In this document: one piece after another, positions 1,915-25,507 of the stretch
Layout: every line of letters begins with the position of its first letter
How positions within the stretch are numbered: the stretch's first letter is position 1
From: Clostridiales bacterium
Lineage (GTDB): Bacteria > Bacillota > Clostridia > Christensenellales > Aristaeellaceae
Length of the DNA stretch: 26,758 nt
Assembly: GCA_015056395.1 (NCBI GenBank)
Contig: SVGK01000010.1
Coordinates: 1-26,758 of the forward strand
Direction of reading: 5' to 3'
Position numbers and translations under genes: made by a program
Notes under the pieces: model-generated
Told to the model about the DNA's origin: nothing
Seen by the model: the letters and a program-made list of their open reading frames with translations, nothing else
The model's database searches: none

Positions 1915-1917
1915 GAC

Positions 1918-3582: not shown

Positions 3583-3603
3583 CGGTAAAGGAGGAAAACC
3601 GCT

Positions 3604-4143
3604 GTGGCAAGATTAAAGGATAAGTACCGCGCGGAAGTCGTACCGGCGCTCCAGCAGAAGTTCAACTATAAGAACGTGATGGAGATTCCGCGCCTTGAAA
3701 AGGTCGTCATAAACATGGGCCTTGGCGATTGCAAGGACAATGCCAAGGCGCTTGAGACCGCCGTTGGCGAGCTCACGATCATCGCCGGTCAGAAGCCGCT
3801 GGTCACCAAGGCCAAGAAGTCCATCGCGAACTTCAAGCTGCGCAGCGGCATGAACGTCGGCGCGAAGGTCACACTGCGCGGCGACCGCATGTATGAGTTC
3901 ACGGACAAGCTTGTCTCGATCGTTCTCCCCCGCGTGCGCGACTTCCGCGGCGTGTCCGACAAGGCCTTCGACGGCCGCGGCAACTACGCCCTGGGCGTGC
4001 GCGAGCAGCTGATCTTCCCTGAGATCGAGTACGACAAGGTTGAAAAGATCCGCGGCATGGAGATGGTCTTCGTCACCACTGCCAAGACGGACGAGGAAGC
4101 CAAGGAGCTGCTCCGCCTGCTGGGCATGCCGTTCCAGGCGTAA
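3604..4143 (+). CDS. rplE: 50S ribosomal protein L5
   Basis: [40 protein letters not shown] is a canonical L5. GTG start after RBS AAAGGAGG. Confidence 0.94.
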
Positions 4144-4164
4144 GCGTTAAGGAGGAAACATACC

Positions 4165-4350
4165 GTGGCAAAGACAAGCATGAAGGTCAAGCAGCAGCGG
4201 GCAGCAAAGTATTCCACCCGCGCTTACACCCGCTGCCGCATCTGCGGCCGTCCCCACTCGGTGCTGCGCAAGTATGGCGTGTGCCGTATCTGCTTCCGCG
4301 AACTGGCCTATGCCGGCCAGATCCCGGGTGTGCGCAAGGCCAGCTGGTAA
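4165..4350 (+). CDS. rpsN: 30S ribosomal protein S14 type Z (zinc-binding, 61 aa)
   Basis: [12 protein letters not shown]...[25 protein letters not shown] carries the C-x2-C...C-x2-C motif of short zinc-type S14 (rpsZ). GTG start after AAGGAGG. Confidence 0.94.
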
Positions 4351-8189: not shown

Positions 8190-8199
8190 GCCGGGAGGT

Positions 8200-8850
8200 A
8201 TGACTATGAAGCTGATTTTCCTGGGCCCTCCCGGTGCGGGCAAGGGAACGCAGGCCGCGGGCGTCAGCGCGCACCTGCGCGTGCCGCACATCTCTACCGG
8301 CGATATGTTCCGCTCTGCCATCTCCAACGGCACGCCGACGGGGCTTGAGGCAAAGCGCTACATGGACGCGGGCCAGCTGGTGCCCGACAGCGTCGTGATC
8401 GACATGGTGCGAGAGCGCCTGGCGATGGATGACTGCGCGAACGGCTATCTGCTGGACGGCTTCCCCCGCACGGTGGAGCAGGCCGAGGCGCTGGACGGCA
8501 TATCCGCCCCGGACGCCGTGGTCGAGATCAACGTGCCGGACGAAAGGCTGCTTGCGCGCCTGACGGGCCGCAGGGTCTGCCAGAAGTGCAGCGGCACCTA
8601 CCACATCTCAAAGCTTACGGATGAGAAGGTCTGCCCCGTGTGCGGCGGCGCGCTCATCCAGCGCGACGATGACAAGCCGGAGACGATCGCCAAGAGGCTG
8701 CAGGTCTACCACGACCAGACCTCCCCGCTGATCGGCTACTATCAGGCGCAGGACAAGCTCCGCGTCATCGACGTGGCCTCGCTGGCCACGGTGGATGGCG
8801 ACAGCCGCCCCGAGGATGTGTTCAAGGCCATCCTCGCTTCGCTGGAGTAA
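8200..8850 (+). CDS. adk: Adenylate kinase with a zinc-binding LID (C-x2-C...C-x2-C)
   Basis: P-loop GPPGAGKGTQ. LID cysteines CQKCSGTYH...CPVCGG. The ATG at 8206 (MKLIFLG) has better spacing from RBS GGGAGG (8193-8198) and may be the real start. Confidence 0.94.
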   Translation: MTMKLIFLGPPGAGKGTQAAGVSAHLRVPHISTGDMFRSAISNGTPTGLEAKRYMDAGQLVPDSVVIDMVRERLAMDDCANGYLLDGFPRTVEQAEALDGISAPDAVVEINVPDERLLARLTGRRVCQKCSGTYHISKLTDEKVCPVCGGALIQRDDDKPETIAKRLQVYHDQTSPLIGYYQAQDKLRVIDVASLATVDGDSRPEDVFKAILASLE

Positions 8851-8853
8851 TTC

Positions 8854-9627
8854 ATGATCAAGTTAAAGACAGAGGCACAGATCGAAAAGATGCGCGCAGC
8901 GGGAGTGCTGCTGCACAGCGTACTCACCGCCCTGCGCGCGGCGGCCAGGCCCGGCGTGACGACGCTCGAGCTGGACCGCATGGCCGAGGACATGATCCGA
9001 AGCGCCGGCGCGACGCCGTCGTTCAAGGGCTATGCCGGCTTTCCGTATTCGATCTGCGCATCCATCGACGACCAGGTCGTTCATGGCTTTTCGAACGACA
9101 GGCCCCTTTTGCAGGGACAGCTGCTGAGCATAGACTGCGGCTGCAAGCTGGACGGCTGGCAGTCCGACAGCGCGCTCTCCGTGGTGGTCGGCGGCGGCAA
9201 TGCGGAAGCGCAGCGTCTGATCGACATCACGGAACGCTGCTTCTGGCTGGGCGCTGACATGGCGCGCGAGGGCAACCGCTTAGGCGACATCGGGCACGCG
9301 GTGCAGACCTATGCCGAGAGCATGGGCTGCGGCGTGGTGCGCGACTATACCGGACACGGCATAGGGCGCGAGATGCACGAGGATCCCTCCGTGCCGAACT
9401 ACGGCTACGCCGGCCGCGGCCTCAAGCTTCAGAAGGGCATGACGATCGCCATAGAACCCATGATCACACTGGGCACGTGGAGGACGAAAAAGCTCTCCGA
9501 CGGCTGGACGGCCGTCACGGCCGACGGCTCACTGGCGGCGCACTACGAGCACACCGTGCTGGTGACCGACGGCGAGCCCGAGCTGCTGAGCTTCCCCGGC
9601 GCACGCATTTCGGAGGCGCTTCGATGA
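8854..9627 (+). CDS. map: Type I methionine aminopeptidase
   Basis: Pita-bread-fold metal-binding residues are in context (…HGFSNDRPL…IDCG…HGIGREMHEDP…IEPMI…EHTVLVT). It is in the canonical position after adk. Confidence 0.94.
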   Translation: MIKLKTEAQIEKMRAAGVLLHSVLTALRAAARPGVTTLELDRMAEDMIRSAGATPSFKGYAGFPYSICASIDDQVVHGFSNDRPLLQGQLLSIDCGCKLDGWQSDSALSVVVGGGNAEAQRLIDITERCFWLGADMAREGNRLGDIGHAVQTYAESMGCGVVRDYTGHGIGREMHEDPSVPNYGYAGRGLKLQKGMTIAIEPMITLGTWRTKKLSDGWTAVTADGSLAAHYEHTVLVTDGEPELLSFPGARISEALR

Positions 9628-12259: not shown

Positions 12260-12756
12260 GTGCGGATCCCCTTCGCTTCGTCCAGCGCCTTGCGTATCAG
12301 CACGATCTTGCGCTCGTCCTGTTTGTGCTTGACGTTCTTTCGATAGCCGTCCTTTGAGGAAGCCTCATAAACCCTGAGATAATCGGGAAGCGTCAAAAGC
12401 CCATAACGCGCGCCCTTCTCCTCGACGATCGGTATTCTGGATATGTCCACGCCGGCGAAGGGCCCGAGGCTCTCCAGCGAAGCGAAGGCCACGCTGACGC
12501 CGTCCCTTTCGAAGGCGTGCTCCGAGTCGTCATACAGCGCATAGCCCAGCGCCGCCATGGCCCGGCTGAGCATGGGCCAGGCCTCGCGCAGCAGGCGTTC
12601 GGGGACCAGCACGTCCACGTCGTCCGCGTCGAGACTGCGGTCCAGGCGTTCCTCGAGCCCCAGCGAACCAAACAACAGCGGTTCGACGCCGAAGCCCTCG
12701 TTCAACATGCGCGCGACCTGCAAAAATGCCGCGCGTTTCGCGCCGTCAGCTCTCAT
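12256..12756 (-). CDS. Nucleotidyltransferase-fold protein (Pol-beta-like NTase superfamily, 166 aa)
   Basis: Motif LLFGSLGLEERLDRSLDADDVDVLV fits hG[GS]-x(9-13)-DxD. The ATG at 12756 is preceded by AGGAGG 5 nt upstream. The longer ORF-track start at 12876 has no RBS and would read through the upstream hairpin. Confidence 0.7.
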   Translation of the reverse strand: MRADGAKRAAFLQVARMLNEGFGVEPLLFGSLGLEERLDRSLDADDVDVLVPERLLREAWPMLSRAMAALGYALYDDSEHAFERDGVSVAFASLESLGPFAGVDISRIPIVEEKGARYGLLTLPDYLRVYEASSKDGYRKNVKHKQDERKIVLIRKALDEAKGIRT

Positions 12757-12792: not shown

Positions 12793-13345
12793 CAGCGGCG
12801 GCCTCCGGGCCGCCACGCTGTCCATCCGTTCCAGTCTGCGGTCAGTTCGAGGCGAGGAACAGCTTCCAGTCCTCATCTGATATGGAAAACTTGTCGACGA
12901 TCTCCTCGTCCGACCAGCCGGTGGTCAGGCGCAGCTTGCGTATCGTGTCGAAGAGGCTGTTCAAGCGCCCCTCGGCGCGTCCTTCTTCGCGTCCCTCTCT
13001 ACGTCCTTCTTCGCGCCCTTCCTGATAGATATCTTCAATGATGCTGCACATTGCACGTACCCCGTGGCCCCTCCGCAGCGGCGGCCTCCAGGCCGCCACA
13101 CCATCGTCCGTTCCCGCCTGCAATCAGTCCGAGGCGAGGAACAGCTTCCAGTCCTCGCTCGATATGGAGAGCTTGTCGACGATCTCCTCGTCTGACCAGC
13201 CTGTGGTCAGGCGCAGCTTGCGGATCGTGTCGAAGAGGCTGTTCAGGCGCCCCTCGGTGCGTCCTTCTTTGCGTCCCTCTTCGCGTCCTTCTTCGCGTCC
13301 TTCTTCGCGCCCCTCCTGATAGATATCTTCCATGATCTTGCACAT
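12793..13345. repeat. Two tandem ~270-284-bp direct repeats (~88% identity) spanning the 3' end of the Rpn-type gene plus its downstream GGCGGCC-n4-GGCCGCC hairpin
   Basis: Copy 1 is ~12793-13060 and copy 2 is ~13077-13345. Both begin CAGCGGCGGCCTCCRGGCCGCCAC and contain ...CGAGGCGAGGAACAGCTTCCAGTCCTC... Confidence 0.85.
12842..13051 (-). pseudogene. Duplicated C-terminal fragment (~69 aa) of the adjacent Rpn/YhgA-type nuclease gene
   Basis: MCSIIEDIYQEGREEGRREGREEGRAEGRLNSLFDTIRKLRLTTGWSDEEIVDKFSISDEDWKLFLASN is ~85% identical to the last ~70 aa of the 13124..13996 product. It arises from a 284-bp tandem DNA duplication. Confidence 0.75.
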
Positions 13346-13996
13346 TTCAAGCGCCCCCTTTGGGTCGTCCTTATAATACCCGCTTCGTTCCGCCATCTCC
13401 TCGTACAGCATATCCCCGGGATCGCTGCACAGGAAATCGTGCATCAGCTTTCCCAGCGCGTCGTCGCCCCTGTACTGGCCGTTGACATACAGTATGTGTT
13501 CGCGGTCGTCGAAGGGCGCGCCGGTGCCCAGGTTGATGCGCTCGACCGGATAAAGCCCCTTCCCCATGCGGAACACGTCGTGCTCCGTGATGAATATGAC
13601 ATAGGTCTCCGGCAGCGCCCTGAAGGGCTGTCCCGCGCTCAGAGCTTCGATGTCCATCGCGGCTGAGTGGTACCGGGCGCGCTCCGGCTCGGCGCCCTCG
13701 TCCGCGCGCTGCACCTCGATGTCATACTGCCTGTGCTTGCTGTCCGTGGCGTGCACGTCCAGCGTCACGGACCGTGCGCCGGCCAGCCGCTTCATGTCGC
13801 GCTGCGTCTCCGCGCCGGTGAGCACCAGGTCGTCCTTGTCCAGTATGATCCTCAGCACGAACTGCGCAAACGGCAGATCGTCGCGGAACATGCAGCGCAT
13901 GAACACGTCGTCAATGGGACGCAGCTGCGCAAGCCGCGCAAGGCTCCGCTCCGTGAACTGCCTGCGCCAGGCCTCGTCGATGTTCATGGCGCACAC
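13124..13996 (-). CDS. Rpn/YhgA-like PD-(D/E)XK family recombination-promoting nuclease / putative transposase
   Basis: The D...IEVQ core (LDVHATDSKHRQYDIEVQRA) is typical of the transposase_31/PDDEXK families. The C-terminal EGREEGREEGREEGRKEGRTEGR repeats and the LNSLFDTIRKL...WSDEEI tail are hallmarks of this family. Confidence 0.75.
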   Translation of the reverse strand: MCAMNIDEAWRRQFTERSLARLAQLRPIDDVFMRCMFRDDLPFAQFVLRIILDKDDLVLTGAETQRDMKRLAGARSVTLDVHATDSKHRQYDIEVQRADEGAEPERARYHSAAMDIEALSAGQPFRALPETYVIFITEHDVFRMGKGLYPVERINLGTGAPFDDREHILYVNGQYRGDDALGKLMHDFLCSDPGDMLYEEMAERSGYYKDDPKGALEMCKIMEDIYQEGREEGREEGREEGRKEGRTEGRLNSLFDTIRKLRLTTGWSDEEIVDKLSISSEDWKLFLASD

Positions 13997-14162: not shown

Positions 14163-15923
14163 ATGAGCAAGTTCTTTATCGAATGCCCGGCCTGTCACCG
14201 CTACAGCCAGGCCTCCACGTCCCTGTTTGCCAGCCGGCGCATACGCTGCGCCTGCGGCTTCACCATCGACGTCAAGGCGGACCGCATCACCACGCGCGTC
14301 TGTCCGTCCTGCGGCAATTCCATCGCTTTCGACCAGGCGAAGGGCGCGACGGCGAAGTGCCCCATATGCAGGGCGCAGCTGCTCACGCCGGAGAGCATGA
14401 ACAGCCTGGTCACGTTCGCGTGCCGCACCTGCGGCTGCACGCTGCAGGCGAACAAGGGCGCGCAGCAGATCACGTGCCCCCTGTGCGACACGGTCAACGA
14501 CGTGCAGGCCGAGGTCAAGCTCGCGGCGCAGCGCGCGCAAGGCACGCCGCAGGTCATACGCTACGAGGGCGACAACATGACGTTCGTCTGGCGGCACCCC
14601 GCGACGGACTTCGTGATGGGCTCGCAGCTGATCGTGCACGAGAGCCAGGAGGCTCTGTTCTTCCGCAACGGCGAGGCGCTGGATTCGTTCCCAGCGGGAC
14701 GCTACACGCTCGAGACCGCGACGCTGCCGCGCATGAATGGCCTGCTGCCGCTGCCTGTGCAGGGACAGCCCTTCCACGCGGAGGTCTTCTTTGTCAACCT
14801 GACCACGCAGATGGGCATCAAATGGGGCACCAACAGCAAGGTCGGACTGTTCGACCCGGCCAGCGGCCTGCATGTGGAGCTGGGCGCGTCCGGCAGCTTC
14901 AACCTGCGCGTGACGGACCCGCGGCGGCTCGTGATCCGCCTGGTCGGCACCACGGACAGGCTGACGCAGGAGCAGGTGTTCGGGCACGACGGCGGCTACT
15001 TCCGCACGCTGGTCATGACGAAGGTCAAGGCGAACCTCGCGCGCGTGATCAGGGAGAACCGCATATCCGTGCTGGAGCTGGACCAGCACATCGACGTGAT
15101 CGGCGAGGCGCTGCGCACGCAGATCAACGCGGAGTTAGAGGAATACGGCATGACCATGCCTGAGTTCTACGTCGCCAACATACTGACGCCGGACGACGAC
15201 CCGAACTTCAGGCGCATGAAGCAGCAGCACGCGGAGCTCTACCTGCGCACGCGCGAGGAGGAGATCCGTAAGGCCGAGGCGGAGGCGGCGTTCGAGCGCA
15301 AGGCGGTCGAGGCGCAGACGCAGGCGCGCATGAAGGTGATCGGCGCGCAGGGCGAAGCCGACGCCATGCGCATACAGGCGCAGGCCCAGGCGGACGCCTA
15401 CCGCATGCAGGCGGAGGCGGAGGCGCAGGAGATGCGCATGAAGGGCTACACCTACCAGCAGGAGACGACGCGCCAGGTCGCCACGGAGGCGGTCAAAAAC
15501 GGCGGCGCGGGCGGCTTGGCCGGCGACGTGACGGGCGTGCTGGGTGGCGCGATGCAGCTGGGCCTCGGCCTGGGCGCGGCCGGCAGCGTGATCGGCATGA
15601 CGAAGGACGCGCTGGGCGCGATGAACGCGGCCGTGCCGCAGGCGCCCGCCGCGACGGACGACGGCTGGACGTGCGAGGGCTGCGGCTGCACGGGCAACAC
15701 GACGAACTTCTGCCCGAACTGCGGGCGGCGGCGGCCCGAGGCAGGCTGGACGTGCCCGGGCTGCGGGCAGGCGGGCATCACGACGAACTTCTGTCCGAAC
15801 TGCGGGAGGCGACGGCCCGAGGCGGGCTGGACGTGTCCCGGCTGCGGGCTCACGGGCATCACGACGAACTTCTGTCCGAACTGCGGCGCCAAGAAGGGTG
15901 AGAAGGGAGATGTCGAGGGATGA
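14163..15923 (+). CDS. SPFH/Band-7 (YdjI-like, Band_7_1) domain protein fused to multiple zinc ribbons
   Basis: RBS GAAGGAGAG at 14148-14156, then ATG at 14163; the ORF-track start at 13650 is an unsupported extension. The N-terminus has three CxxC...CxxC pairs. The central segment (IRYEGDNMTFVWRHPATDFVMGSQLIVHESQEALFFRNGEALDSFPAGRYTLETATLP...FHAEVFFVNLTTQMGIKWGT) resembles B. subtilis YdjI-type SPFH. An A/E/Q-rich coiled coil, a Gly-rich linker, and three GWTCPGCG..TTNFCPNCG zinc-ribbon repeats follow. Confidence 0.8.
   Translation: MSKFFIECPACHRYSQASTSLFASRRIRCACGFTIDVKADRITTRVCPSCGNSIAFDQAKGATAKCPICRAQLLTPESMNSLVTFACRTCGCTLQANKGAQQITCPLCDTVNDVQAEVKLAAQRAQGTPQVIRYEGDNMTFVWRHPATDFVMGSQLIVHESQEALFFRNGEALDSFPAGRYTLETATLPRMNGLLPLPVQGQPFHAEVFFVNLTTQMGIKWGTNSKVGLFDPASGLHVELGASGSFNLRVTDPRRLVIRLVGTTDRLTQEQVFGHDGGYFRTLVMTKVKANLARVIRENRISVLELDQHIDVIGEALRTQINAELEEYGMTMPEFYVANILTPDDDPNFRRMKQQHAELYLRTREEEIRKAEAEAAFERKAVEAQTQARMKVIGAQGEADAMRIQAQAQADAYRMQAEAEAQEMRMKGYTYQQETTRQVATEAVKNGGAGGLAGDVTGVLGGAMQLGLGLGAAGSVIGMTKDALGAMNAAVPQAPAATDDGWTCEGCGCTGNTTNFCPNCGRRRPEAGWTCPGCGQAGITTNFCPNCGRRRPEAGWTCPGCGLTGITTNFCPNCGAKKGEKGDVEG
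15657..15899 (+). repeat. Three near-perfect 81-bp (27-aa) tandem repeats inside the SPFH gene, each encoding one C4 zinc ribbon
   Basis: GGCTGGACGTG recurs at 15663, 15744 and 15825 with an exact 81-nt period. The encoded units are GWTC[EP]GCGxxGxTTNFCPNCGRRRPEA. Confidence 0.9.
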
Positions 15924-16579
15924 AGAACGGTAAGGGCCATTTCCTTGCGCTTTGGGCCATCGCGCTGGCGCTGTTCGTGGTGCTGGCGCTGGCGATACCT
16001 TTTGCGCGGACGCCGGTGTACTGGATCGGCTTTTGCGCGACGCTTTTGATGTTCGCCGTAGTGACGGCGGCATTCATGCGCGCGTTCAGGGACGGGCGGT
16101 CGCTCGAGAGCGCGCTGCTGGGCTGGCCCATATTCAAGTGCGGCGCACTGGCGCTCGGCGCGCAGCTGATCGCGGGCTTTGCGCTGATGGCGCTGGCGCG
16201 CGCGCTCGGCGTCACCGCGGCTGTGGTGATCGAGATCGTGCTGTTCGGCTGCGCGGCGGCGGTGCTGGTCGCGCGGGACGCGGCGCGCGCCGCTGTCGAG
16301 CAGACGGAGGCGCGCGTGCGGGATGACACCGGCGCGTGGAAGGCACTGCGCGCGCAGGCGAGCGCGTTCGCGGCGGCGGCCGGCAGCGACGCGGCGCGCA
16401 AACTCGCCGACGACATACGCTTTGCGGACCCGAGGCCCACGGACATGGACGGCGATATCGCGCAGGCCGTGGGCGCGCTGGGCGCGGACGCGGCGGACGA
16501 GGATATCGAGCAGGTCAGAAAGATGGTCGGAAGGAGAAACGCGCTGGCGAAGGCGGGGAAGAAGGAAATGCAGAATTGA
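15920..16579 (+). CDS. Small membrane protein (about 4 TM helices, Ala-rich cytoplasmic C-terminus), translationally coupled to the SPFH gene
   Basis: ATGA overlap with the upstream stop (15920-15923). Hydrophobic segments are HFLALWAIALALFVVLALAI, VYWIGFCATLLMFAVVTAAF, GALALGAQLIAGFALMALA and AAVVIEIVLFGCAAAVLV. Confidence 0.75.
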   Translation: MKNGKGHFLALWAIALALFVVLALAIPFARTPVYWIGFCATLLMFAVVTAAFMRAFRDGRSLESALLGWPIFKCGALALGAQLIAGFALMALARALGVTAAVVIEIVLFGCAAAVLVARDAARAAVEQTEARVRDDTGAWKALRAQASAFAAAAGSDAARKLADDIRFADPRPTDMDGDIAQAVGALGADAADEDIEQVRKMVGRRNALAKAGKKEMQN

Positions 16580-16613
16580 TAATTCAGAATTCAGAATTAA
16601 GAATTAAGAATGG
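16580..16613. repeat. AT-rich heptamer microsatellite (AATTCAG x2, AATTAAG x2) directly after the stop codon
   Basis: taATTCAGAATTCAGAATTAAGAATTAAGAATgg contains two EcoRI sites. It is an AT island in an otherwise >65% GC context. Confidence 0.7.
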
Positions 16614-16664
16614 ATAGCCCGGAGACCCGAACGTGCGGGTCCCCCGCAATGCCCCGAACGACCT

Positions 16665-17655
16665 CGTAGCGGTGGCGTCTACGCCGCCATATCCCTCGCC
16701 ATTCCCGCCAGGGAATGCGAAACGACCGAAGGACCTCATCCGGCCCTCACGGGCCACCTTCCCCAAAGGGCAACGCTGTCAACTTTGAACAAGGACATAA
16801 CAAATCATAGATATACGTCGTCCAGCGGGAATGGCGGCTGATAGCCGCCGCTACGGATCACATGATCTGCAAATGTAACCGCATAAACGGCACGGGATCG
16901 TCTTAAGTTGACAGCGTTGCCCCAAAGGGGAAGGCAAGGTCCGCCATTCAATATACGATCCGCCGTCGTACCTCGCCCATCGGTCCCGAGGACGATGATC
17001 AACAGACAAAGAGACGATCGGCCCACGAATGTACCCATATCACAGCTCGGCACGCCCGATCCTCGCCCGGAGCGGCGTCCTGTCGACGCCGTCTCCGCGA
17101 CAAAACCTCGAGCCGTCCGCTCCTATCCGACCTTGATCCCCGAGCTGACGTGGCCCGTTGGACCGCGTACAGCACAGCCACCGCGCCGAAGGCGCGGCGC
17201 GAAGCGTCCTTGAGGGTCCTCATGCTGTCTGCTAAACTGAAGCACACGGCGGCGTGATAAGGTTTCGTTTCCAACCTCTCACCCGTCGCCGTGGCCTCAT
17301 ACAAGCAGACAGCAGGAGGTTCATCAAGGATGGCGGCCGGACGAGGTATCCGTCCCCCCCAACGACCCCGTAGCGGCGGCTATCAGCCGCCACATCCCTC
17401 GCCATTCCCAACAGACAAGCCGAAACGACCGAAGGACCTCATCCGGCCCTCACGGGCCACCTTCCCCAAAGGGCAACGCTGTCAACTTAAGGCGATCCCG
17501 TTTTGGTTGTGCAGCTACATCTGCAGATCGTGTGATCCGTAGCGGCGGCTATCAGCCGCCATTTCCGACGCACAACGTATACCCGTGATTTGTTATGGTC
17601 TTGTTAAAAGTTGACAGCGTTGCCCCAGAGGGGAAGGCAAGGTCCGTCATTTGAA
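16665..17655. mobile_element. Non-coding MITE-like composite repeat: ~115-bp inverted arms (16827-16943 and 17455-17566) around a ~500-bp core, with extra partial copies on both sides
   Basis: The left arm and the reverse complement of the right arm align at ~85% (GGAATGGCGGCTGATAGCCGCCGCTACGGATCACAYGATCTGCA...CTTAAGTTGACAGCGTTGCCC...). Direct repeats 16665-16786 and 17369-17488 share an identical 66-bp block at 16721-16786 and 17424-17488. There is a further fragment at 17609-17652. The only ORFs here are spurious GC-frame ORFs. Confidence 0.6.
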
Positions 17656-17791: not shown

Positions 17792-20700
17792 ATGATCATC
17801 TTCAAATGCAAATCCTGCGGCGGCGACCTGTCCTTCGAGCCGGGCGCGAGCGTCGCGGAATGCCCCTACTGCGGCGTGAAGCAGACGCTGCCGAAGCTGG
17901 ACGACGACAAGCGCGCGAACCTCTACGACCGCGCCAACCACTTCCGCCGCCAGAACGAGTACGACAAGGCCATGGCGATCTACGAGCAGATACTGTCCGA
18001 GGACCGCACGGACGCCGAGGCGTACTGGTCGCTGGTGCTGTGCCGCTACGGCATAGAGTACGTCGAGGACCCCGTTACGCGCAAGCGCGTGCCCACGGTC
18101 AACCGCGCGCAGTACGCCTCCGTGCTGGCGGACGACGACTACAAGTCGGCGCTTCAATACGCGGACCCTGCGCAGCGCGTGCTCTATGAATCGGAGGCGG
18201 AGGCCATCGCGGAGATACAGCGCGGCATATTGGACATCTCGCGCAAGGAGCAGCCCTTCGACGTGTTCATCTGCTACAAGGAGACGGACGCGAACGGCCG
18301 CCGCACGCCGGACAGCGTGCTGGCGACGGACCTGTACCACCAGCTGACGAAGGAGGGCTTCCGGGTATTCTTCTCGCGCATCACGCTGGAGGACAAGATC
18401 GGCACGGCGTACGAGCCGTACATATTCGCGGCGCTGAACAGCGCGAAGGTGATGGTGGTGCTGGGCACGAAGCCGGAGTACTTCAACGCGGTGTGGGTGA
18501 AGAACGAGTGGAGCCGCTACCTTGCGCTGATACGCGCGGGCGCGGAGAAGGTGCTGGTGCCCGCGTACCGCGACATGGACCCCTATGACCTGCCGGAGGA
18601 GTTCGCGCACCTGCAGGCGCAGGACATGGGCAAGCTGGGCTTCATGCAGGACCTGATACGCGGCATCAAGAAGCTGACCGCGAAGGACGATCCGAAGCCC
18701 GCGCGGCCCGCAGCGCAGACCGTGGTCGCGGGCCCCGGCGCGAACATAGAGAACCTGATGAAGCGCGCGCGGCTCTTCATGGAGGACGGCAACTGGATGA
18801 GCGCCACGGAGTACCTGGACAAGGTGCTGGACGAGAATGCCGAGTACGCGCCCGCCTACGCGGGCAAGGTGCAGGTCTCGCTGCGCATGAAGCGGGAGGC
18901 CGAACTGGCCGGGAGCCTCACGGACTACGAAGGCGACCCCGACTGGCAGAGGGCGCTGCGCTTTGCCGCGCCCGAACAGCGGAAGGTTTACGAGGGGTAC
19001 GCGGCGCAGGCGGCGGAGGCGCGGGAGGAGAAGCGCAAGGAAGACATCTATGCCGGAGCGGCCGCCATGCTCGCAAAGGCCGATACGCCCGCCGCGTGCC
19101 GCGCGGCGAAGGCGGAATTTGCGAAGATCCCGCTGCACAGGGACGCGGGCGCGAAGGTGCGCGAGTGCGAGGAGAAGGCGAGGCGCATCGAATACGACGC
19201 GCTCCTCACCAGATACAAGGACGTGGCCAGGGACTATAACAGCGTCTCAAAGGCCGAGAGGCTTGAGGCGCTTGCGGCGGAGTTCGATGCGTTCAGGGGC
19301 ACCGACATGCCCGGGCGCTGCCGCGCGGAGGCGGAGCAGTGCCGCGCGGCGCTCTATGACGAGGCCGCCGAGGCCATGCGGAAGAGCGCGCAGGCACAGC
19401 AATTCGAAAAGGCGGCGGAGCTGTTCAGACGGCTGGGCGCCTACAGGGACGCGCAGGCGCAGGCGCGAAAGTGCTCGGACAGCGCGGCGGAAGTCAAACG
19501 CGCCGACGAGCTGCGCGCCGCGCGTGAACGCGAGGAGCAGGAGCGCAGGATAGAGAAGGAGCGCGCCAGACAGAAGAGGAACAGGGTGCTCCTGTCGTTG
19601 CTGGTGCTCGTGCTGGCGGCGGGCGCGCTGGCCTATCTGTACGTGCTGAAGCCCATGATGGCCTATGACAAGGCGGTTGGGGCGATGGAGGCGGGAAACT
19701 ACGACGAGGCGACGGCGCTGTTTGAAGAGATGGGAGACTACAGGGACGCCGCTGTACAGGCGCAGGAGAGCCAATACAGGAAGGGTCTGTCGTTGATGAA
19801 CAGCGGAAAATACGATGCGGCTGTAGAGGTGTTCAACAGTATCGGCAGTTACGGCGATAGTTCCGCAAAGGCAAAACAGGCACAGGCAGACAAATTGTTT
19901 GATGCGGGATATTACGCCGAAGCGTATGCGGCATACATCGCATTGGATTCGGAGTATCAAACACATAAAGACGATTACGAGCAGATGTACGTCGATGCAT
20001 CGAGGCTGTTTGCGGATGGTGATTATGATGGCGCCAGCATGGCGTTTAATTCGATCGCGGGATACAAGGATTCAACAACACAGGCAAAGGAGAGCCAATA
20101 CCAGAAGGGCCTGTCGTTGATGAACAGTGGGCAATATGATGCAGCTGTAGAGGTATTCAACAGTATCAGCAGTTACGGCGATAGTTCTACGAGAGCAAAA
20201 CAGGCACAGGCAGATGAATTGTTTGCTGCGGGGAATTACGCCGAAGCATATATGGTTTACGCCGCATTGGATACGGGATATCAAACACACAAAGACGATT
20301 ACGAGCAAATGTACGTCGATGCATCGAAGCAATTTGCGGATGGTGATTATGACGGCGCCAGCAAGGCGTTTAATTCAATTGCAGGATACAAGGATTCAGT
20401 AACACAGGCAAAGGAGAGCCAGTACCAGAAGGGCCTGTCGTTGATGAACAGCGGGCAATATCATGCAGCTGCGGTGGCATTCAAGAGCCTTGGCAGTTAC
20501 AACGACGCCGCGACACAAGCGCAGGAGAGCCAGTACCAGAATGGCCTGTCGTTGATGAAAATTGGGCAATACGATGCGGCTGTGGAGGTATTCAAGAGCC
20601 TTGGCAGTTACAACGACGCTGCGACACAGGCGCAGGAGAGCCAATATCGGAAAGGCATGTCGTTGATGGAGAGCGAGGAGTATGATGCGGCTACGGAGGT

Positions 20701-21484
20701 GTTCGATGGCCTCAGTAATTACAACGACGCCGCGACAAAAGCGCAGGAGAGCCAGTACCTGAAGGCGGCGGCGCTGAACACAGCGGAGAATTACGATGAA
20801 GCTTATCTGGTCTATGCGTCCATAGCCGGCTATAAGGATGTTGACAGCATCGTCAAAAACGACGGTAATATTTCAGCAGCAGCCTGGCGCGCGCAGTTAT
20901 ACGTCGGCAATACGGTGACCTTCGGCGCGTACGACCAGGACGGCGATACCTCAAACGGCGCGGAGGCCATCGAATGGATCGTGCTGGCGAACGACGGCAA
21001 GACGGCGACGCTGATTAGCAGATACGGTCTGGACGCGAAGCCCTACAACACTGAACAAGAATATGTGACCTGGGAGACATGCACGCTGCGGAAATGGCTG
21101 AACGGCGATTTCCTGAACGCGGCCTTTTCGGCGGACGAGAGGGCGAAGCTTGAAACGGTCAAGGTCACGGCGGACAGGAATCCCAAGAATTTTATCGATC
21201 CCGGCAACGACACGCAGGACAAGGTCTTCCTGCTGTCCATAGACGAGGCGAACAAGTATTTCAGCTCTGATTCGGACCGCATGTGCAAGCCCACGAAGAC
21301 GGCAGTCAAGAATGGAGCAAGCACGAACAGCTCGGGTGCGTGCTGGTGGTGGCTGCGGTCGCCCGGCTACTATCCTAGCCTCGTCGCATACGTCCGCGAC
21401 GACGGTTCGGTCTACTACGACGGCTGCGGTGTCTACAACGGCGATCTCGCTGTTCGGCCGGTCGTGGTGCTGCGGCTTTCATAG
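17792..21484 (+). CDS. Large single-pass membrane protein (1230 aa): N-terminal zinc ribbon, TPR-like region, TIR domain, helical repeat region, TM helix, ~12 degenerate 37-38-aa extracytoplasmic repeats, DUF6273-like C-terminal domain
   Basis: RBS AAAGGAG at 17778-17784 and ATG at 17792 (MIIFKCKSCGGDLSFEPGASVAECPYCG); the ORF-track start at 17651 is an unsupported extension. The TIR region at ~18254-18680 reads QPFDVFICYKETD...EGFRVFFS...VMVVLGTKPEYFNAVWVKNEWSRYLAL, with the conserved W-x3-E at 18494-18508. The TM helix RVLLSLLVLVLAAGALAYLYVL lies at ~19585-19650. Repeats fit the pattern G.Y.DA..QA.ESQY.KG. The C-terminus (TVTFGAYDQDGD...IEWIVLANDGKTATLISRYGLD...VTWETCTLRKWLN...KVFLLSIDEA...ACWWWLRSPG...AVRPVVVL) matches my recollection of DUF6273. 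Confidence 0.8.
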   Translation: MIIFKCKSCGGDLSFEPGASVAECPYCGVKQTLPKLDDDKRANLYDRANHFRRQNEYDKAMAIYEQILSEDRTDAEAYWSLVLCRYGIEYVEDPVTRKRVPTVNRAQYASVLADDDYKSALQYADPAQRVLYESEAEAIAEIQRGILDISRKEQPFDVFICYKETDANGRRTPDSVLATDLYHQLTKEGFRVFFSRITLEDKIGTAYEPYIFAALNSAKVMVVLGTKPEYFNAVWVKNEWSRYLALIRAGAEKVLVPAYRDMDPYDLPEEFAHLQAQDMGKLGFMQDLIRGIKKLTAKDDPKPARPAAQTVVAGPGANIENLMKRARLFMEDGNWMSATEYLDKVLDENAEYAPAYAGKVQVSLRMKREAELAGSLTDYEGDPDWQRALRFAAPEQRKVYEGYAAQAAEAREEKRKEDIYAGAAAMLAKADTPAACRAAKAEFAKIPLHRDAGAKVRECEEKARRIEYDALLTRYKDVARDYNSVSKAERLEALAAEFDAFRGTDMPGRCRAEAEQCRAALYDEAAEAMRKSAQAQQFEKAAELFRRLGAYRDAQAQARKCSDSAAEVKRADELRAAREREEQERRIEKERARQKRNRVLLSLLVLVLAAGALAYLYVLKPMMAYDKAVGAMEAGNYDEATALFEEMGDYRDAAVQAQESQYRKGLSLMNSGKYDAAVEVFNSIGSYGDSSAKAKQAQADKLFDAGYYAEAYAAYIALDSEYQTHKDDYEQMYVDASRLFADGDYDGASMAFNSIAGYKDSTTQAKESQYQKGLSLMNSGQYDAAVEVFNSISSYGDSSTRAKQAQADELFAAGNYAEAYMVYAALDTGYQTHKDDYEQMYVDASKQFADGDYDGASKAFNSIAGYKDSVTQAKESQYQKGLSLMNSGQYHAAAVAFKSLGSYNDAATQAQESQYQNGLSLMKIGQYDAAVEVFKSLGSYNDAATQAQESQYRKGMSLMESEEYDAATEVFDGLSNYNDAATKAQESQYLKAAALNTAENYDEAYLVYASIAGYKDVDSIVKNDGNISAAAWRAQLYVGNTVTFGAYDQDGDTSNGAEAIEWIVLANDGKTATLISRYGLDAKPYNTEQEYVTWETCTLRKWLNGDFLNAAFSADERAKLETVKVTADRNPKNFIDPGNDTQDKVFLLSIDEANKYFSSDSDRMCKPTKTAVKNGASTNSSGACWWWLRSPGYYPSLVAYVRDDGSVYYDGCGVYNGDLAVRPVVVLRLS
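19766..20413 (+). repeat. Two tandem 324-bp (108-aa) intragenic direct repeats (~88% identity) within the extracytoplasmic repeat region of the TIR protein gene
   Basis: GAGAGCCAATAC recurs at 19766, 20090 and 20414 with an exact 324-nt spacing. This stretch (~19690-20830) has visibly lower GC (~50%) than the 5' half of the gene (~70%). Confidence 0.85.
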
Positions 21485-21607
21485 TCAAATCGTTAATCTT
21501 TACTCTTCAAATCCTCTGGCGTGCAAGCGCCATGATCCCGGCAGTGCCGCGAACAGACCTTATCCTGCAGGAGCGAGAATCATTGAGTACAAAGAGGTGA
21601 ACAGAAT

Positions 21608-22492
21608 ATGAACGGAAGACCAGGCATCCTCTTTCTCGGCAACGGCATCAACCGACTGTTCAATGACGATCCGTGGGACAAGATGATCCGCGACCAGCTC
21701 GCCCTGTCGGGCCATCGCTACACGTGGGAACAGATCAGGAACATACCGCCCACGATGCAGATCGTACTTGCGACGAACGATCAGGTCGACGCCCGCCTCA
21801 AGCAGATCGCAAAGGAGCTGGAACAACAGCGCATACAGGACGAACGCGCCGCTTTCCTGCGCAGGCTCGCCGGTATGGATGTCGACTGCGTAATGACGGC
21901 GAATTATTCTCTCGAGATCGAAAAGGCATTCGGGCTGAAGGAAAGCTGCGCCTCCTACAGGCGGCGCCTGAACAGGACCATCGAAGCAAACGGCCTGCGC
22001 GACGATTTTCGTCTGTACCAATATTATCCCCTCGAGCGGGCGGACGGAAGGACGATGCCGCTTTGGCACGTGCACGGCGACATCGCGAAGCCTCGCTCCA
22101 TGATCATGGGCCATTACTACTACGCAAGGCATCTGCGCGAGATACAGGACCGCGTCGGCGTTATGATGCGCGTCGTTCGGGGCTGTGAACGGGCCGGCTC
22201 GACGTTCCATCCGCAAAGCTGGGTCGATGCGTTTCTGATAAGCGACGTGTTCATGCTCGGCTTTGGGCTGTATCTGTGTGAGTCCGATTTGTGGTGGCTG
22301 CTCTGCTGCAAGAAGCGCAACTTCCCCGATACGAAGGTGTTCTTCTACGGCGAGGCGACGAATGATGTCCGGCTGCTGCTGGAGGCCTATGGCGGCGAAA
22401 CGCAGGACGAGATCAGCCGGATCGGAGAAGACGGCTATATGCGCTTTTATGAAAGGGCGATCGCGGATATCGAACGAAAGCTGGAACATTAG
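21608..22492 (+). CDS. Stand-alone SIR2-like (SIR2_2 / DSR-ThsA-type sirtuin fold) protein, 294 aa, no additional sensor domain
   Basis: The N-terminal ILFLGNGINRLFNDDPWDKMI fits the SIR2_2 consensus lFlGAGxS...PxW..L. VMTANYSLEIEKA fits TTNYDxLlE (catalytic Asn retained). LWHVHGDIAKPRSMIMGHYYY fits iyKlHGs...lvlt.edY (catalytic His retained). DVFMLGFGLYLCESDLWWLL fits llfiGYSl.D. RBS AAAGAGGTG lies upstream. The gene is 124 bp downstream of, and co-directional with, the TIR gene. Confidence 0.65.
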   Translation: MNGRPGILFLGNGINRLFNDDPWDKMIRDQLALSGHRYTWEQIRNIPPTMQIVLATNDQVDARLKQIAKELEQQRIQDERAAFLRRLAGMDVDCVMTANYSLEIEKAFGLKESCASYRRRLNRTIEANGLRDDFRLYQYYPLERADGRTMPLWHVHGDIAKPRSMIMGHYYYARHLREIQDRVGVMMRVVRGCERAGSTFHPQSWVDAFLISDVFMLGFGLYLCESDLWWLLCCKKRNFPDTKVFFYGEATNDVRLLLEAYGGETQDEISRIGEDGYMRFYERAIADIERKLEH

Positions 22493-22574
22493 TTGGATGT
22501 CCAGAGGGACAAGGACCGCGATCCTGCATGATCGGTGTCATTGATGTATGTCCTGCCCATGCCCTCAATAACGT

Positions 22575-23545
22575 ACCACCGTAGGGACGCCCCATGGGGC
22601 GTCCGCGTGCCCGATCCCGGCACGCACCGCGCAACGTCTTTACGAACCGCATCCCGTAGGGACGCCATTCATGGCGTCCGCCGCGCGTGAGCGCACCGTT
22701 ATCCGTTTCCCCGCAGGGCGCGTTTTCCCCGCGATCCGCCATTGCGGACACACGCAGGGGGAACGTGGCGGCGTAGACGCCGCCGCTACGGATGTTGTTA
22801 TATCACTTGAAGGATGGCGGACAAGGCGCGGCAAGCAACGCTCCTGCGGCGACACATCGCCGCCATTCCGTACACCGACCGTCCTGTCGCCCACGCCGCA
22901 CAGAGCATGACCCTCCGTAGGGACGCCCCATGGGGCGTCCGCGTGCCCGATCCCGGCACGCACTGCGCAACGTCTATACGAACCACATCCCGTAGGGGCG
23001 CCATCCATGGCGCCCGCGCCCTCATCCCGGCATGAACCGCGCAACATCCACACGAAACCGCATCCCGTAGGGACGCCATTCATGGCGTCCGCCTGCGCGT
23101 GAGCGCACCGTTATCCGTTGCCCTACAGGACGCATATCCCCCGCGATCTGCCATCATGAACACGGGGCACGTGGCGGCGCAGACGCCGCCGCTACGGGTG
23201 TTGTTATATATCACCTAACGATGGGGGCGGATGGGGCGCGGCAAGCGACGACCCTGCGGCGACACATCGCCGCCATTCCGTACACCGACCGCCCTGTCGC
23301 CCGCGCCGCACAGAGCATGACCCTCCGTAGGGACGCCCCATGGGGCGTCCGCGTGCCCGATCCCGGCACGCACTGCGCAACGTCTATACGAACCACATCC
23401 CGTAGGGGCGCCATCCATGGCGCCCGCCCGCGCGTAAGCGCACCGTTATCCGTGGCCTCCCAAGGCGCATATCCCCCGCGATCCGTCATCACGAGCGCGG
23501 GGGAACGTGGCGGCGCAGACGCCGCCGCTACGGGTGGTGTTCTTG
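22575..23545. repeat. Three tandem non-coding units (~330, ~420, ~230 bp), each with a perfect 20-bp palindrome GGACGCCCCATGGGGCGTCC, a second palindrome GGRCGCCATYCATGGCGYCC ~75 bp later, and a GTGGCGGCG-yAGA-CGCCGCCGCTACGG hairpin
   Basis: Palindrome A occurs at 22585, 22919 and 23339. Palindrome B or variants occur at 22660, 22995, 23080 and 23413. The CGCCGCCGCTACGG hairpin occurs at 22773-22800, 23171-23198 and 23507-23535. Sequence between the palindromes is itself repeated, so these are not CRISPR spacers. Confidence 0.8.
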
Positions 23546-23603
23546 GACCACCTTTCGCATTTGCGAGCAACGAGTGGTGGATGAGGGCGCAGCATTTTAC
23601 ATG

Positions 23604-23645
23604 AGGGCCTGTTCCCTTCGCGAGAGGGAACGGGCCCTTTTCTTA
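23604..23645 (+). terminator. Stem-loop GGGCCUGUUCCCU-ucgcgag-AGGGAACGGGCCC followed by TTTTCTTAT; terminator-like, first of two near-identical copies
   Basis: 13-bp stem with one G-U pair plus a T-tract on the + strand. It lies immediately 3' of the minus-strand SWIM gene stop (23648), so it is probably bidirectional. The second copy is at 24097-24140. Confidence 0.55.
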
Positions 23646-23647
23646 TG

Positions 23648-23983
23648 TCATTTGCCGAGCACGGTTTCCGCAAACCTGTCGCGGCAGCGCTTTTCAAGCT
23701 CTTTTTCCTGCTGCTTTTTGTAGGCGATGTATTCAAGTACGGCGTTTTTGTCGATGACGCCGCATTCGAGCATGAGGCGGGCGATGTGCTTGCACGGGGC
23801 GTCCTTCTTCTTTCCCCTGATCTGGAAATCGGGGCAGTCGCATTCTTCGAGCGTCGCGTGGTAGATGTCGCCGTTGGAGCCGACGAACACGGCGGAGGGC
23901 ACGCCGGTTTCGATCGACTGCACATTCACGTCCAAGGCGCGAATAGCGGTCTTGTCGTCGAGGTTCCTGTAAGAAATTGCCAT
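23648..23983 (-). CDS. Small SWIM zinc-finger protein (111 aa)
   Basis: CDCPDFQIRGKKKDAPCKHIARL matches the SWIM CxCxnCxH signature. RBS AAAGGAAG lies 6 nt before the ATG at 23983. GC is intermediate. Confidence 0.7.
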   Translation of the reverse strand: MAISYRNLDDKTAIRALDVNVQSIETGVPSAVFVGSNGDIYHATLEECDCPDFQIRGKKKDAPCKHIARLMLECGVIDKNAVLEYIAYKKQQEKELEKRCRDRFAETVLGK

Positions 23984-24096
23984 GGGGATGCACTTCCTTT
24001 CTGGTCGATGCGGTTATGAGGTGCATATCAGCTTTCGAACGGTGATGTATAATAGAAATGCAAATCGGACAAGTGGTGTTGGCTGATTTTGCATGT

Positions 24097-24140
24097 GGGC
24101 CTGTTCCCTTCGCGAGAGGGAACGGGCCTTCTTATTTCTT
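24097..24140 (+). terminator. Second copy of the GGGCCTGTTCCCTTCGCGAGAGGGAACGGGCC stem-loop plus TTCTTATTTCTT, abutting the stop of the minus-strand secreted-protein gene
   Basis: Identical 32-bp hairpin and similar flank (ATTTTRCATGWG upstream) to the copy at 23604. Confidence 0.5.
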
Positions 24141-24689
24141 GGTCGGGGCAACAACAAGCAAATAACTTTCGATGTATTCGGGGTTCCAGATGTAATAGGT
24201 GGCATAGCGGCCAATGTGATAGGGGATACGCGCGCCGGGCGTCAAGATGGATCCTGCATTTCTGAAAACATTCATAGTCTTCTCATAGAACCCTTTTGAA
24301 TCGGACATTATGGACAAAACCTGATCATGCGATATATTCGGGAAACTTGTGTACTCAAGCGCAGAATACAGGGCCATGAGCTTGAAGGCGTCTTCAACAG
24401 ACAAGTCGTCAGTGGATATGTTGACGTTCAACGGAAAATCTACAGACAATGTAGCGAAAGATGAAGCATCGTACTGAATCGTAATCATGTCATAGCCCAT
24501 CGCGGAAGTGGCATCGTTCACATCGGCAAAAACTGGGTCAGCTTTGAACGGATAGCCATACAGCGAACACCATCCAGCATATGTGGCTGCAATCCTTGAA
24601 GGCGTATCAAAGCCGGACGAAGCATCTGCGAGAGCGAAACCGGACAATATGAGTGCGAGCAAGAGCAGTATAACAACAAGTCTTTTCAT
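24132..24689 (-). CDS. Secreted hypothetical protein with N-terminal signal peptide (185 aa), lower-GC gene
   Basis: ATG at 24689 preceded by GGAGGTG with a 7-nt spacer. MKRLVVILLLLALILSGFALADAS is a signal peptide. The ORF-track start at 24734 lacks an RBS. GC is ~45-50% versus >65% for flanking DNA. Confidence 0.7.
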   Translation of the reverse strand: MKRLVVILLLLALILSGFALADASSGFDTPSRIAATYAGWCSLYGYPFKADPVFADVNDATSAMGYDMITIQYDASSFATLSVDFPLNVNISTDDLSVEDAFKLMALYSALEYTSFPNISHDQVLSIMSDSKGFYEKTMNVFRNAGSILTPGARIPYHIGRYATYYIWNPEYIESYLLVVAPTKK

Positions 24690-24747
24690 GTGAAACACCT
24701 CCATTAGGTCCATATTCCGTGACGGCACGTTCATGGATTCAGGATAA

Positions 24748-25131
24748 CTATGCCGTTATGGACGCGCCATCTTCCTTTTGCATGTCCGGGTTGCCTGCGA
24801 AGGCGCGGGCTGTGTTCAGGAGGGTGGTTTGGGCGTCGTGGTTCAGGGAACGGAACAGGGAAAGAAGCTCAGATTCCTGTTCTGTAAGCGGAACGGATAA
24901 TTCATATTTTGGGGGTTCAGAGTAGAATTCAGCGATGCTGTTGATTCCATAGATCTCACACAGGCGAAAGAGCATATCAGCGTCCGGCTGGCCCCGGCCA
25001 TGCTCCCAGCCCGATACGGTCTTATCGCTTTTACCGATCATTTCGCCAACTTCTCTTGCTGTCAAGCCTGCCATTATTCGGAAATCATGCAGCTTGGCGG
25101 CGAGGGCTTTTCTGATTTCTTGTTCTTTCAC
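24748..25131 (-). CDS. XRE-family (Cro/CI-type) helix-turn-helix transcriptional regulator, 127 aa
   Basis: GTG start at 25131 preceded by GAGGTGA. The HTH reads LTAREVGEMIGKSDKTVSGWEHGRGQPDADMLFRLCEIY, and there is a C-terminal extension. Confidence 0.85.
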   Translation of the reverse strand: MKEQEIRKALAAKLHDFRIMAGLTAREVGEMIGKSDKTVSGWEHGRGQPDADMLFRLCEIYGINSIAEFYSEPPKYELSVPLTEQESELLSLFRSLNHDAQTTLLNTARAFAGNPDMQKEDGASITA

Positions 25132-25150
25132 GGAATCTCACCTCAAAAGA

Positions 25151-25179
25151 AGTATACAACCATTTTAGCTATATTGCAA
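25151..25179 (-). promoter_or_regulatory. Sigma-70-type promoter for the minus-strand XRE regulator (-35 TTGCAA, 17-nt spacer, -10 TATACT)
   Basis: Reverse complement of 25151-25179 reads TTGCAAtatagctaaaatggttgTATACT. Located ~20 nt upstream of the RBS. Confidence 0.55.
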
Positions 25180-25219
25180 GACAAATCCTTAAATAATGAG
25201 AATTAATTGATAAAATGGC

Positions 25220-25248
25220 TTGACAGTCTATGATTTTAAGAGTATTAT
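25220..25248 (+). promoter_or_regulatory. Divergent sigma-70 promoter (-35 TTGACA 25220-25225, 17-nt spacer, -10 TATTAT 25243-25248) flanked by three TTAAGAG/CTCTTAA operator-like repeats
   Basis: Consensus -35 with near-consensus -10. TTAAGAG recurs at 25236-25242 and 25271-25277, and an inverted CTCTTAA at 25262-25268 brackets the -10. Confidence 0.65.
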
Positions 25249-25291
25249 ATATCCACGCTCTTAAAATTTAAGAGATTGAGAGGTGGTTAAT

Positions 25292-25507
25292 GTGTATCAC
25301 ATCAAAGATGTCGCTACTGTAGTTGAGGAAAGACGCAGTGAATTTGGTATGACGGTTCGCGCATTGTCTCAAAAGAGCGGCGTCAGCGAAGGCGCTTTGT
25401 ATAGGATCCTTGGCGGCCATTGAAAGATGACCGCATCGGAACTGCTGTCGCTCTCGGAGGTATTGCATTTGACGTTCGATGACTATCGATCTGAAGAGGC
25501 GGTGTGA
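25292..25507 (+). pseudogene. Small XRE-family HTH gene interrupted by an in-frame TGA (25421-25423); Cro-like partner of the divergent regulator
   Basis: GTG at 25292 after RBS AGAGGTGG. Translation is MYHIKDVATVVEERRSEFGMTVRALSQKSGVSEGALYRILGGH-*-KMTASELLSLSEVLHLTFDDYRSEEAV*. Both halves together make one canonical HTH_XRE domain in a single frame. Confidence 0.55.

Follow-up and report, generated by a model that had tools for sequence, protein, structure and literature searches.

A single-domain SIR2-like family recurs as an optional gene in an SPFH and TIR receptor cluster of gut and rumen Clostridia

The window analyzed here is a 26,758-nt stretch of DNA from a Clostridiales bacterium of the Aristaeellaceae (GenBank assembly GCA_015056395.1, contig SVGK01000010.1, positions 1 to 26,758, forward strand), and it carries at 21608..22492 (+) a gene for a stand-alone, defense-type SIR2-like protein ("SIRim"). 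The open reading frame (ORF) starts with ATG and encodes 294 amino acids plus a stop codon, exactly at the coordinates given in an earlier note made from the letters of the sequence, and a Shine-Dalgarno sequence (GAGGTG, 21594..21599, +) can be read 8 nt before the ATG. The ORF is a real gene, because the same sequence is recorded, as a hypothetical protein, from a Clostridiales metagenome-assembled genome (MAG) and 83 homolog clusters were found (E-values of 5e-202 to 1e-10), nearly all of 280-320 aa. A gene for a TIR-domain protein ends upstream, leaving a gap of 123 nt in which a scan found no promoter-like or terminator-like site. Around the SIR2-like gene, Rfam, tRNA, and promoter/terminator scans returned nothing except one terminator-like hairpin within repeats that lie downstream.

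An AlphaFold2 model of the protein, calculated from a 74-sequence alignment, has a mean predicted local distance difference test score (pLDDT) of 94.4 and a predicted template modeling score (pTM) of 0.91, and forms a single compact domain (residues 6-293) with no segment below a pLDDT of 50. The fold is a Rossmann-type SIR2 with a helical insertion and lies nearer to ThsA, DSR2, and KomC than to the deacylase sirtuins. Among its structural neighbors the highest scores belong to KomC (17.5), the KomBC complex (16.2), and SeThsA (15.9), followed by the SIR2 of Avs5 (13.3), the HerA-associated SIR2 (12.4), and FAM118B (12.2), as compared to 8.7-9.6 for the classical sirtuins Af2, PfSir2A, SIRT1, and Hst2, and a Foldseek comparison agrees with this ranking. 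The comparison to ThsA-type SIR2 that the earlier note had proposed thus returned a sirtuin-like fold, as predicted there. All of the top-scoring neighbors are NADase effectors, and since the nearest structural relatives are NADases, the window protein is predicted to hydrolyze NAD+.

The active-site Asn and His, on whose conservation the earlier note had made its assignment depend, are both kept in sequence. The first of three conserved motifs, GNGIN (residues 11-15; 21638..21652, +), corresponds to the GAGxS dinucleotide-binding loop of sirtuins and to the AbiH-type GNGxD, aligns with the G-x-G loop of FAM118B, KomC, and ThsA, and is retained at G11 in 281/291 relatives, at N12 in 279/291, and at G13 in 281/291. 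TANYSLEIE (residues 97-105; 21896..21922, +) holds the putative catalytic Asn99 (288/291) together with Y100 (286/291) and E105 (288/291), and aligns with TTNYD of ThsA and KomC and with TTNFD of FAM118B. The third motif, WHVHGD (residues 153-158; 22064..22081, +), includes the putative catalytic His156, aligns with LHIHG of FAM118B, and has H154 and H156 in 291/291 and G157 in 290/291 relatives. With D227 also kept in 288/291, the residues N99, E105, H154, H156, and D227 are conserved regardless of genomic context (288-291/291). On the helical insert, P47, A55, D58, and V60 are family-conserved candidates for a contact or filament interface, as is Y281 further along the chain.

The C-terminus had been described in the earlier note as an acidic tail, and while the C-terminal sequence quoted there is correct, there is no free tail. 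Residues 276-293 are confidently predicted to form a helix (DSSP assignment, in blocks with mean pLDDT >90), which is followed by His294 (22433..22489, +) and contains Y281, kept in 280/291 relatives. Over the last 31 residues the net charge amounts to no more than about -4, and relatives do not share this acidity. The combination of a Cys4 zinc module and GAGxS that characterizes classical sirtuins is not found in the window protein, which has no CxxC pairs and therefore no zinc module. A housekeeping sirtuin (CobB-like) was ruled out by the fold distance, the missing zinc module, and a patchy distribution.

Profile matches place the protein close to several curated models. Pfam SIR2_2 (PF13289) matches residues 94-177 at 23.4 bits, which is just below the gathering cut-off of 24.5, and is matched by 58/74 aligned relatives (E ≤0.01). 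Pfam AbiH (PF14253) is weakly matched by 44/74 aligned relatives (best E 3.3e-8) and not by the window protein at E ≤0.1, and no NCBIfam model matches the window protein. In PADLOC, the window protein gives weak matches only, to LmuA and PbeC; among the 74 relatives, the SIR2-type LmuA model is matched by 40 and ThsA by 19, and no returned model is named AbiH. The family falls between curated families and is a member of none. A search of PDB sequences with the single window sequence yielded only noise, and a family profile was required to find FAM118B, KomC, and ThsA, at E-values of 5e-4 to 5e-3. Across 1.84 billion representatives, with family clusters defined at 50% identity, the profile returned 2206 matches, 1436 with E≤1e-10 and 632 with E≤1e-30. 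The best 150 of the 2206 are all 184-358 aa long, which makes the one-domain architecture a fixed property of a large family and agrees with the earlier description of the window protein as "SIR2 only." A Rosetta-stone search of the same best 150 found no protein in which the SIR2-like domain is fused to a TIR, SLOG, Macro, or other sensor domain.

When 185,579 species genomes were scanned, 145 relatives of the SIR2-like protein came to light, from which 80 loci were kept, and these come almost entirely from MAGs of Clostridia of the gut and rumen (e.g., Oscillospiraceae, Lachnospiraceae, Acutalibacteraceae, Christensenellales, and Ruminococcus). Plasmid and phage collections, searched by tblastn, gave one distant match each (21-26% identity). 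As these single distant matches leave the family essentially absent from both collections, an origin as mobile-element cargo is unsupported.

In the window, the SIR2-like gene stands at the end of a run of genes on the same strand. The first is a core cluster gene (14163..15923, +) encoding a Zn-ribbon, an SPFH domain (Pfam Band_7_1, 1.3e-36), and a triple Zn-ribbon. It is followed at 15920..16579 (+) by a gene for a 219-aa protein that has apparent membrane-spanning segments in its N-terminal half, has no Pfam match, and always comes after the Band7 gene. The TIR gene (17792..21484, +) encodes 1230 aa from Met48 of a listed ORF of 1277 codons, with the start set by alignment with 13 homologs, and matches Pfam TIR_2, TPR, and DUF6273. 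Its product consists of a Zn-ribbon-TPR-TIR (ZnR-TPR-TIR) module, a coiled coil, a single transmembrane (TM) segment (aa 646-664 in ORF numbering), TPR-like ecto-repeats, and DUF6273. The TIR domain itself (18245..18688, +) contains an invariant WVKNEW with the putative catalytic Glu at codon 18506-18508; over 300 residues, the ZnR-TPR-TIR module has a mean column identity of 71%.

A metagenome scan with the TIR module gave at least 600 matching stretches and at least 452 confirmed relatives, and 80 loci were kept as a second set. Band7 is present in 51/80 of these TIR loci (31/41 of those ≥10 kb) and a small hydrophobic protein (cluster c1 of this set) in 53/80. The core cluster is made up of SPFH, the small hydrophobic protein, and 1-4 TIR receptors, with the SIR2-like gene as an optional extra. 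This core appears to be undescribed, with paralogous, single-pass receptors that bear ZnR-TPR-TIR inside and variable repeats plus DUF6273 outside, and a search of open-access papers and preprints gave nothing relevant on SPFH together with TIR in phage defense.

The arrangement seen in the window recurs when the family is viewed from the SIR2-like gene. Loci from the species scan and from exact protein look-up were combined and duplicates collapsed to give 83 non-redundant SIR2-like loci, in which TIR links were found by iterative searches with parts of the window's TIR neighbor. Seventeen of the 83 carry 1-5 paralogs of the ZnR-TPR-TIR protein; the Zn-ribbon SPFH (Band_7_1) protein is also present in 13 of these 17, and a hydrophobic protein of ~230 aa follows the SPFH gene in 10. 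In all 17, the SIR2-like gene is co-directional and directly flanked by TIR and/or Band7 cluster genes, typically in the order TIR > SIR2-like > Band7 or TIR. Each of these loci has a gap of ≤161 bp on one side of the gene or both, and overlaps reach -49 bp, with overlapping or abutting starts at L011, L018, L027, L061, and L082. The 17 loci do not form one clade and are scattered over the whole neighbor-joining tree of the family.

A second protein family, cluster c5 (~375-425 aa), is unrelated to the first in sequence and fills the same slot in seven further TIR loci (L097, 3545-4744; L101, 8877-10001; L134, 15348-16580; L141, 1750-2874; L144, 4211-5485; L153, 4940-6184; L159, 4171-5412), while L027 has a c5 gene (~16500-17200) together with the SIR2-like gene. 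The c5 proteins share the motifs GxGxS, TTNYT, HG, and GY..D.HIN, their profile matches PsSIR2, the SIR2 of the SIR2-HerA system, with an E-value of 1.5e-3, and one member matches a PADLOC SIR2 model (7e-4). To judge from these features, c5 is probably SIR2-like. If so, two independent SIR2 lineages would have been recruited to the same slot, which would be the strongest argument for a functional relationship between TIR and SIR2, on a basis that is at the level of motifs only.

How far the locus resembles known systems bears on how the protein may work. The earlier note had stated that defense sirtuins are fused to a sensor or partner module, which is only partly right and inaccurate as a general rule, as KomC (264 aa), AbiH, and FAM118B are all SIR2-only. 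A stand-alone SIR2 is therefore already known in kind; the novelty lies in a family that is very large and uncurated, has a fixed minimal architecture, and turns up repeatedly as an optional member of an as yet undescribed SPFH-TIR-receptor cluster. KomC is reported to form a filamentous complex, KomBC, with the HAM1-type KomB, in which it is activated by deoxyinosine triphosphate (dITP) (PMC13454610). FAM118B assembles head-to-tail into filaments, and its activity requires FAM118A (PMC12700824); it shares synteny with TIRAP, a TIR adaptor, and functions downstream of Toll-like receptors (TLRs), and FAM118 is described as a vertebrate-specific clade with filament surfaces of its own. AbiH, an abortive-infection protein of Lactococcus, is described as a stand-alone SIR2-like single gene found largely on integrated conjugative elements (PMC13064643). 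Filaments are thus formed by KomC, ThsA, Avs5, and FAM118B, while HerA-SIR2 acts as part of a large complex.

Set against these systems one by one, the window gene differs from each. It is 14% identical in sequence to KomC (PDB 8zsf), and unlike in Kongming there is no HAM1, ITPase, or deaminase gene, and no KomA or KomB, beside the window gene or in the sampled neighbors. With type I Thoeris it shares a TIR gene that adjoins the SIR2 gene, but the ThsA-type SLOG (STALD) domain for the glycocyclic ADP-ribose (gcADPR) signal is missing from the window protein. While ThsB is small and cytosolic, the window TIR protein is a single-pass receptor of 1230 aa with Zn-ribbon, TPR, and ectodomain, and only a few of the ZnR-TPR-TIR clusters carry the SIR2-like gene. 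In the accessible part of Yirmiya et al., which covers 29 Thoeris configurations, no SIR2-only, AbiH, DUF6273, or Band7 configuration and no window-type TIR architecture is visible. AbiH has the stand-alone SIR2-like form and the N-terminal GNGxx motif in common with the window protein, but it is a single gene there, whereas the window gene is embedded in a multi-gene operon and matches no AbiH profile. Similarity to FAM118B/SIRanc is marginal in sequence, and the likeness in TIR linkage comes without indication of common descent. As for SIR2-HerA (Nezha), no HerA homolog was found in the window or in any SIR2-like locus; HerA-like ATPases are present in five other TIR clusters and never with the SIR2-like family. 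In its predicted working, the window gene is most like the KomC or ThsA-type NADase effectors.

Taken with the recurrent slot, these likenesses lead us to favor, tentatively and with a little less than even confidence, an optional accessory role for the SIR2-like protein as an NAD-depleting effector of the TIR cluster that is switched on in trans. The SIR2-like gene would then be the last, co-transcribed gene of the window's SPFH/hydrophobic/TIR cluster, and its product would be held inactive as a monomer or small oligomer. An activated TIR receptor would serve as the trigger in trans, either through a TIR-made, NAD-derived nucleotide or through contact with the clustered cytoplasmic ZnR-TPR-TIR part or the SPFH scaffold. 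Activation would probably proceed through self-assembly, as in the nearest structural relatives, and the output would be NAD+ hydrolysis and a stop in growth. Because no sensor domain is present in the best 150 members of the family, control in trans or by self-assembly can reasonably be inferred; the SIR2-like protein may be expected to have a defense role, oligomerization, trans-activation, and NADase chemistry.

Several observations weigh against such a coupling. No TIR gene is within reach in 66/83 SIR2-like loci, and the neighbors in these TIR-free loci are heterogeneous (LRR_5, RCC1, Sel1, HhH, Macro, MoxR/VWA, and housekeeping genes). The closest relative (61% identity, L007-L010) adjoins a membrane DUF6273 protein whose called gene is TIR-less, on short contigs. 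Viewed from the other side, the SIR2-like gene is present in only 2/80 TIR loci, L091 and L129 (2/41 of those ≥10 kb), which implies that the TIR cluster works without it. A Mantel test with 13 loci found no correlation of distances for any pair among SIR2-like, Band7, and TIR, the firmly linked Band7-TIR pair included, and is therefore uninformative about the coupling. At L091 and L129 the SIR2-like gene again sits in the slot TIR > SIR2-like > Band7. The link to the neighboring TIR that the earlier note had drawn thus stands in so far as it recurs in 17/83 loci, but it is obligate in neither direction, and since the cluster is usually without the gene and the family usually without the cluster, TIR-SIR2 coupling is at best facultative.

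The same numbers would also suit an autonomous, AbiH-type abortive-infection gene with phage sensing or self-assembly of its own and NAD+ depletion as its output, brought together with TIR clusters by co-location in conflict islands. We consider this unlikely on balance, although it is the main rival. Most family loci are TIR-free with mixed and partly housekeeping neighbors, TIR clusters are overwhelmingly without the SIR2-like gene, Pfam AbiH is matched by 44/74 relatives, the N-terminal GNGxx motif is AbiH-like, and AbiH, too, is SIR2-like, stands alone, and needs no second gene to act (PMC13064643). Wherever the SIR2-like gene is accompanied by a TIR cluster, however, it lies inside that cluster, co-directional and often overlapping the next start, in a recurrent slot that a second, probable SIR2-like family also occupies. 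Independent insertion would be expected to place the gene at the cluster edge or on either strand, unlike the recurrent TIR > SIR2-like > Band7 slot. In addition, the window protein has no AbiH match, no relative matches a PADLOC model named AbiH, and the family is essentially absent from plasmid and phage collections.

The TIR-free loci have neighbors of several kinds. BspA-type LRR_5 proteins adjoin the SIR2-like gene at L016, L025, L029, L054, and L078, some with signal-peptide-like N-termini and some without a predicted TM segment, and the neighbors at L081 and L084 are single-pass proteins whose N-terminal region is not a TIR and whose TM segment is followed by RCC1 or LRR_5 repeats. Sel1 repeat proteins are also found, and some loci have ordinary neighbors, such as an AMP-binding enzyme, a topoisomerase, or an aminotransferase. 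At L023, L025, L028, L037, and L044 the SIR2-like gene is flanked by genes for MoxR-type AAA ATPases (~503 aa); all of these loci but L025 also have DUF2201/VWA-metallopeptidase proteins near MoxR, along with LRR_5 or Sel1 proteins. In one sub-clade, ComEA-like helix-hairpin-helix (HhH) repeat proteins are encoded upstream of the SIR2-like gene at 11 loci (e.g., L055-L057, L085, and L086), several of them bearing a hydrophobic N-terminal segment. A Macro-domain protein (~330-356 aa) is encoded directly downstream at L059, L062, and L069, in the same sub-clade. The Macro and HhH neighbors hint at ADP-ribose chemistry in the TIR-free context.

That hint, and the fact that the family adjoins many different membrane or surface proteins and not TIR proteins alone, would suit an enzyme that regulates its neighbors, for example the cytoplasmic part of the receptors or the SPFH scaffold, as an ADP-ribosyltransferase of proteins or small molecules or as a deacylase, with the directly downstream Macro proteins of the one sub-clade reversing the mark. 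Such a function is distinctly unlikely. The highest-scoring structural neighbors are all NADase effectors, the Macro link is limited to three loci, and many neighbors have signal-peptide-like N-termini and would thus be exported beyond the reach of a cytosolic NAD-dependent enzyme.

A more far-reaching form of the coupling would make the SIR2-like protein a bacterial counterpart of FAM118B/SIRanc in a Toll-like, outside-in pathway, in which binding of a phage, cell, or polymer by the ectodomain leads, through SPFH clustering and TIR activation, to SIR2 filament assembly and NAD+ consumption. We regard this chain of events, with receptor ectodomains that are swapped between paralogs and, in sister loci, hypermutated by a diversity-generating retroelement (DGR), as improbable. 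The DUF6273 ectodomain of TIR receptors is seen as a DGR target at L120 (12308-14435) and at L094, L098, L100, L105, L122, and L125. At L120, the variable region (VR, 12308-12435) and the template region (TR, 13069-13196) differ at 27/128 positions, 25 of which are at TR adenines, and the two are flanked by a bAvd-like gene and a reverse transcriptase (RT) with YMDD, the latter a 399-aa ORF. Cluster c12 was also considered as an RT and rejected, as it is without RT motifs. The C-terminal end of the window TIR protein (21335-21481) has the same CWWWLRSPG...AVRP scaffold, and no bAvd or RT homolog was found in the window.

A role in processing the signal of the TIR pathway, in which the protein would make a second NAD-derived messenger or destroy the TIR product to set a threshold or terminate the response, would fit both its optional presence in TIR clusters and a TIR that keeps its catalytic Glu, could itself be the NAD-consuming effector, and would render a second NADase redundant, but it is very unlikely, as the family persists mostly in TIR-free loci and SIR2-type enzymes are not known to make or degrade signals of the cyclic ADP-ribose type.

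SIR2 NADases are major antiviral effectors, and the control of those without a sensor is understood only for KomC (partner and dITP) and in part for FAM118B (filaments); the SIR2-like family, with more than 600 clusters, offers a third, genetically tractable case. Its recurrent embedding in a cluster of SPFH and membrane TIR-receptor genes suggests that abundant Clostridia of the gut and rumen may have an outside-in TIR pathway. A functional TIR-SIR2 link, if there is one, would have its parallel in the animal connection of FAM118B with TIRAP and TLRs and would extend a Thoeris-like logic to effectors without a signal-binding domain, and if the Toll-like chain described above is true, there would be a prokaryotic precedent for the TIR-SIR2 partnership of animal TLR signaling. 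Should the link prove not to be functional, the family would even so be a likely new AbiH-like defense gene that current defense-finder models miss.

Other genes accompany the TIR clusters at individual loci. A HerA-like DUF87 ATPase (894 aa) is encoded beside a 680-aa protein without matches at L155, L156, L158, L164, and L167. A serine resolvase (~200 aa) is present in 11 TIR loci of the second set, including L096 and L126, and lies directly upstream of the Band7 gene in the inspected loci L113, L116, L126, L154, and L160. An HSP70-like protein with an MZB domain (887 aa) is a further optional TIR-cluster gene (L001-L004, ~1500-4260).

In the window, non-coding repeats lie on both sides of the pair formed by the TIR and SIR2-like genes, upstream at 16683-17651 and downstream at 22480-23545, and no Rfam family matches them. 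The upstream repeats comprise inverted arms of 155 nt (16768-16922 and 17471-17625) plus direct repeats of 103 nt, and downstream a unit of ~336-410 nt is repeated three times in tandem, with GC-rich hairpins and a 31-nt core that is found again at 26056. Beyond them is a low-GC islet (23500-25500; 47-52% GC as compared to ~60-65% elsewhere), possibly a small mobile insert. It contains an ORF of 127 aa (24748-25131, -) that by eye looks like an XRE-type helix-turn-helix protein, one of 111 aa (23648-23983, -) whose CxC...CxH motif is SWIM-like, and one of 200 aa that has a hydrophobic N-terminal segment and matches no Pfam family. A 51-nt repeat is also present there in two copies (23594 and 24086). 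At the other end, a PD-(D/E)XK transposase-like ORF (PDDEXK_2; 13124-13996, -) lies immediately upstream of the cluster, which is situated a few kb downstream of genes for SecY, adenylate kinase, and Met aminopeptidase (6906-9627).

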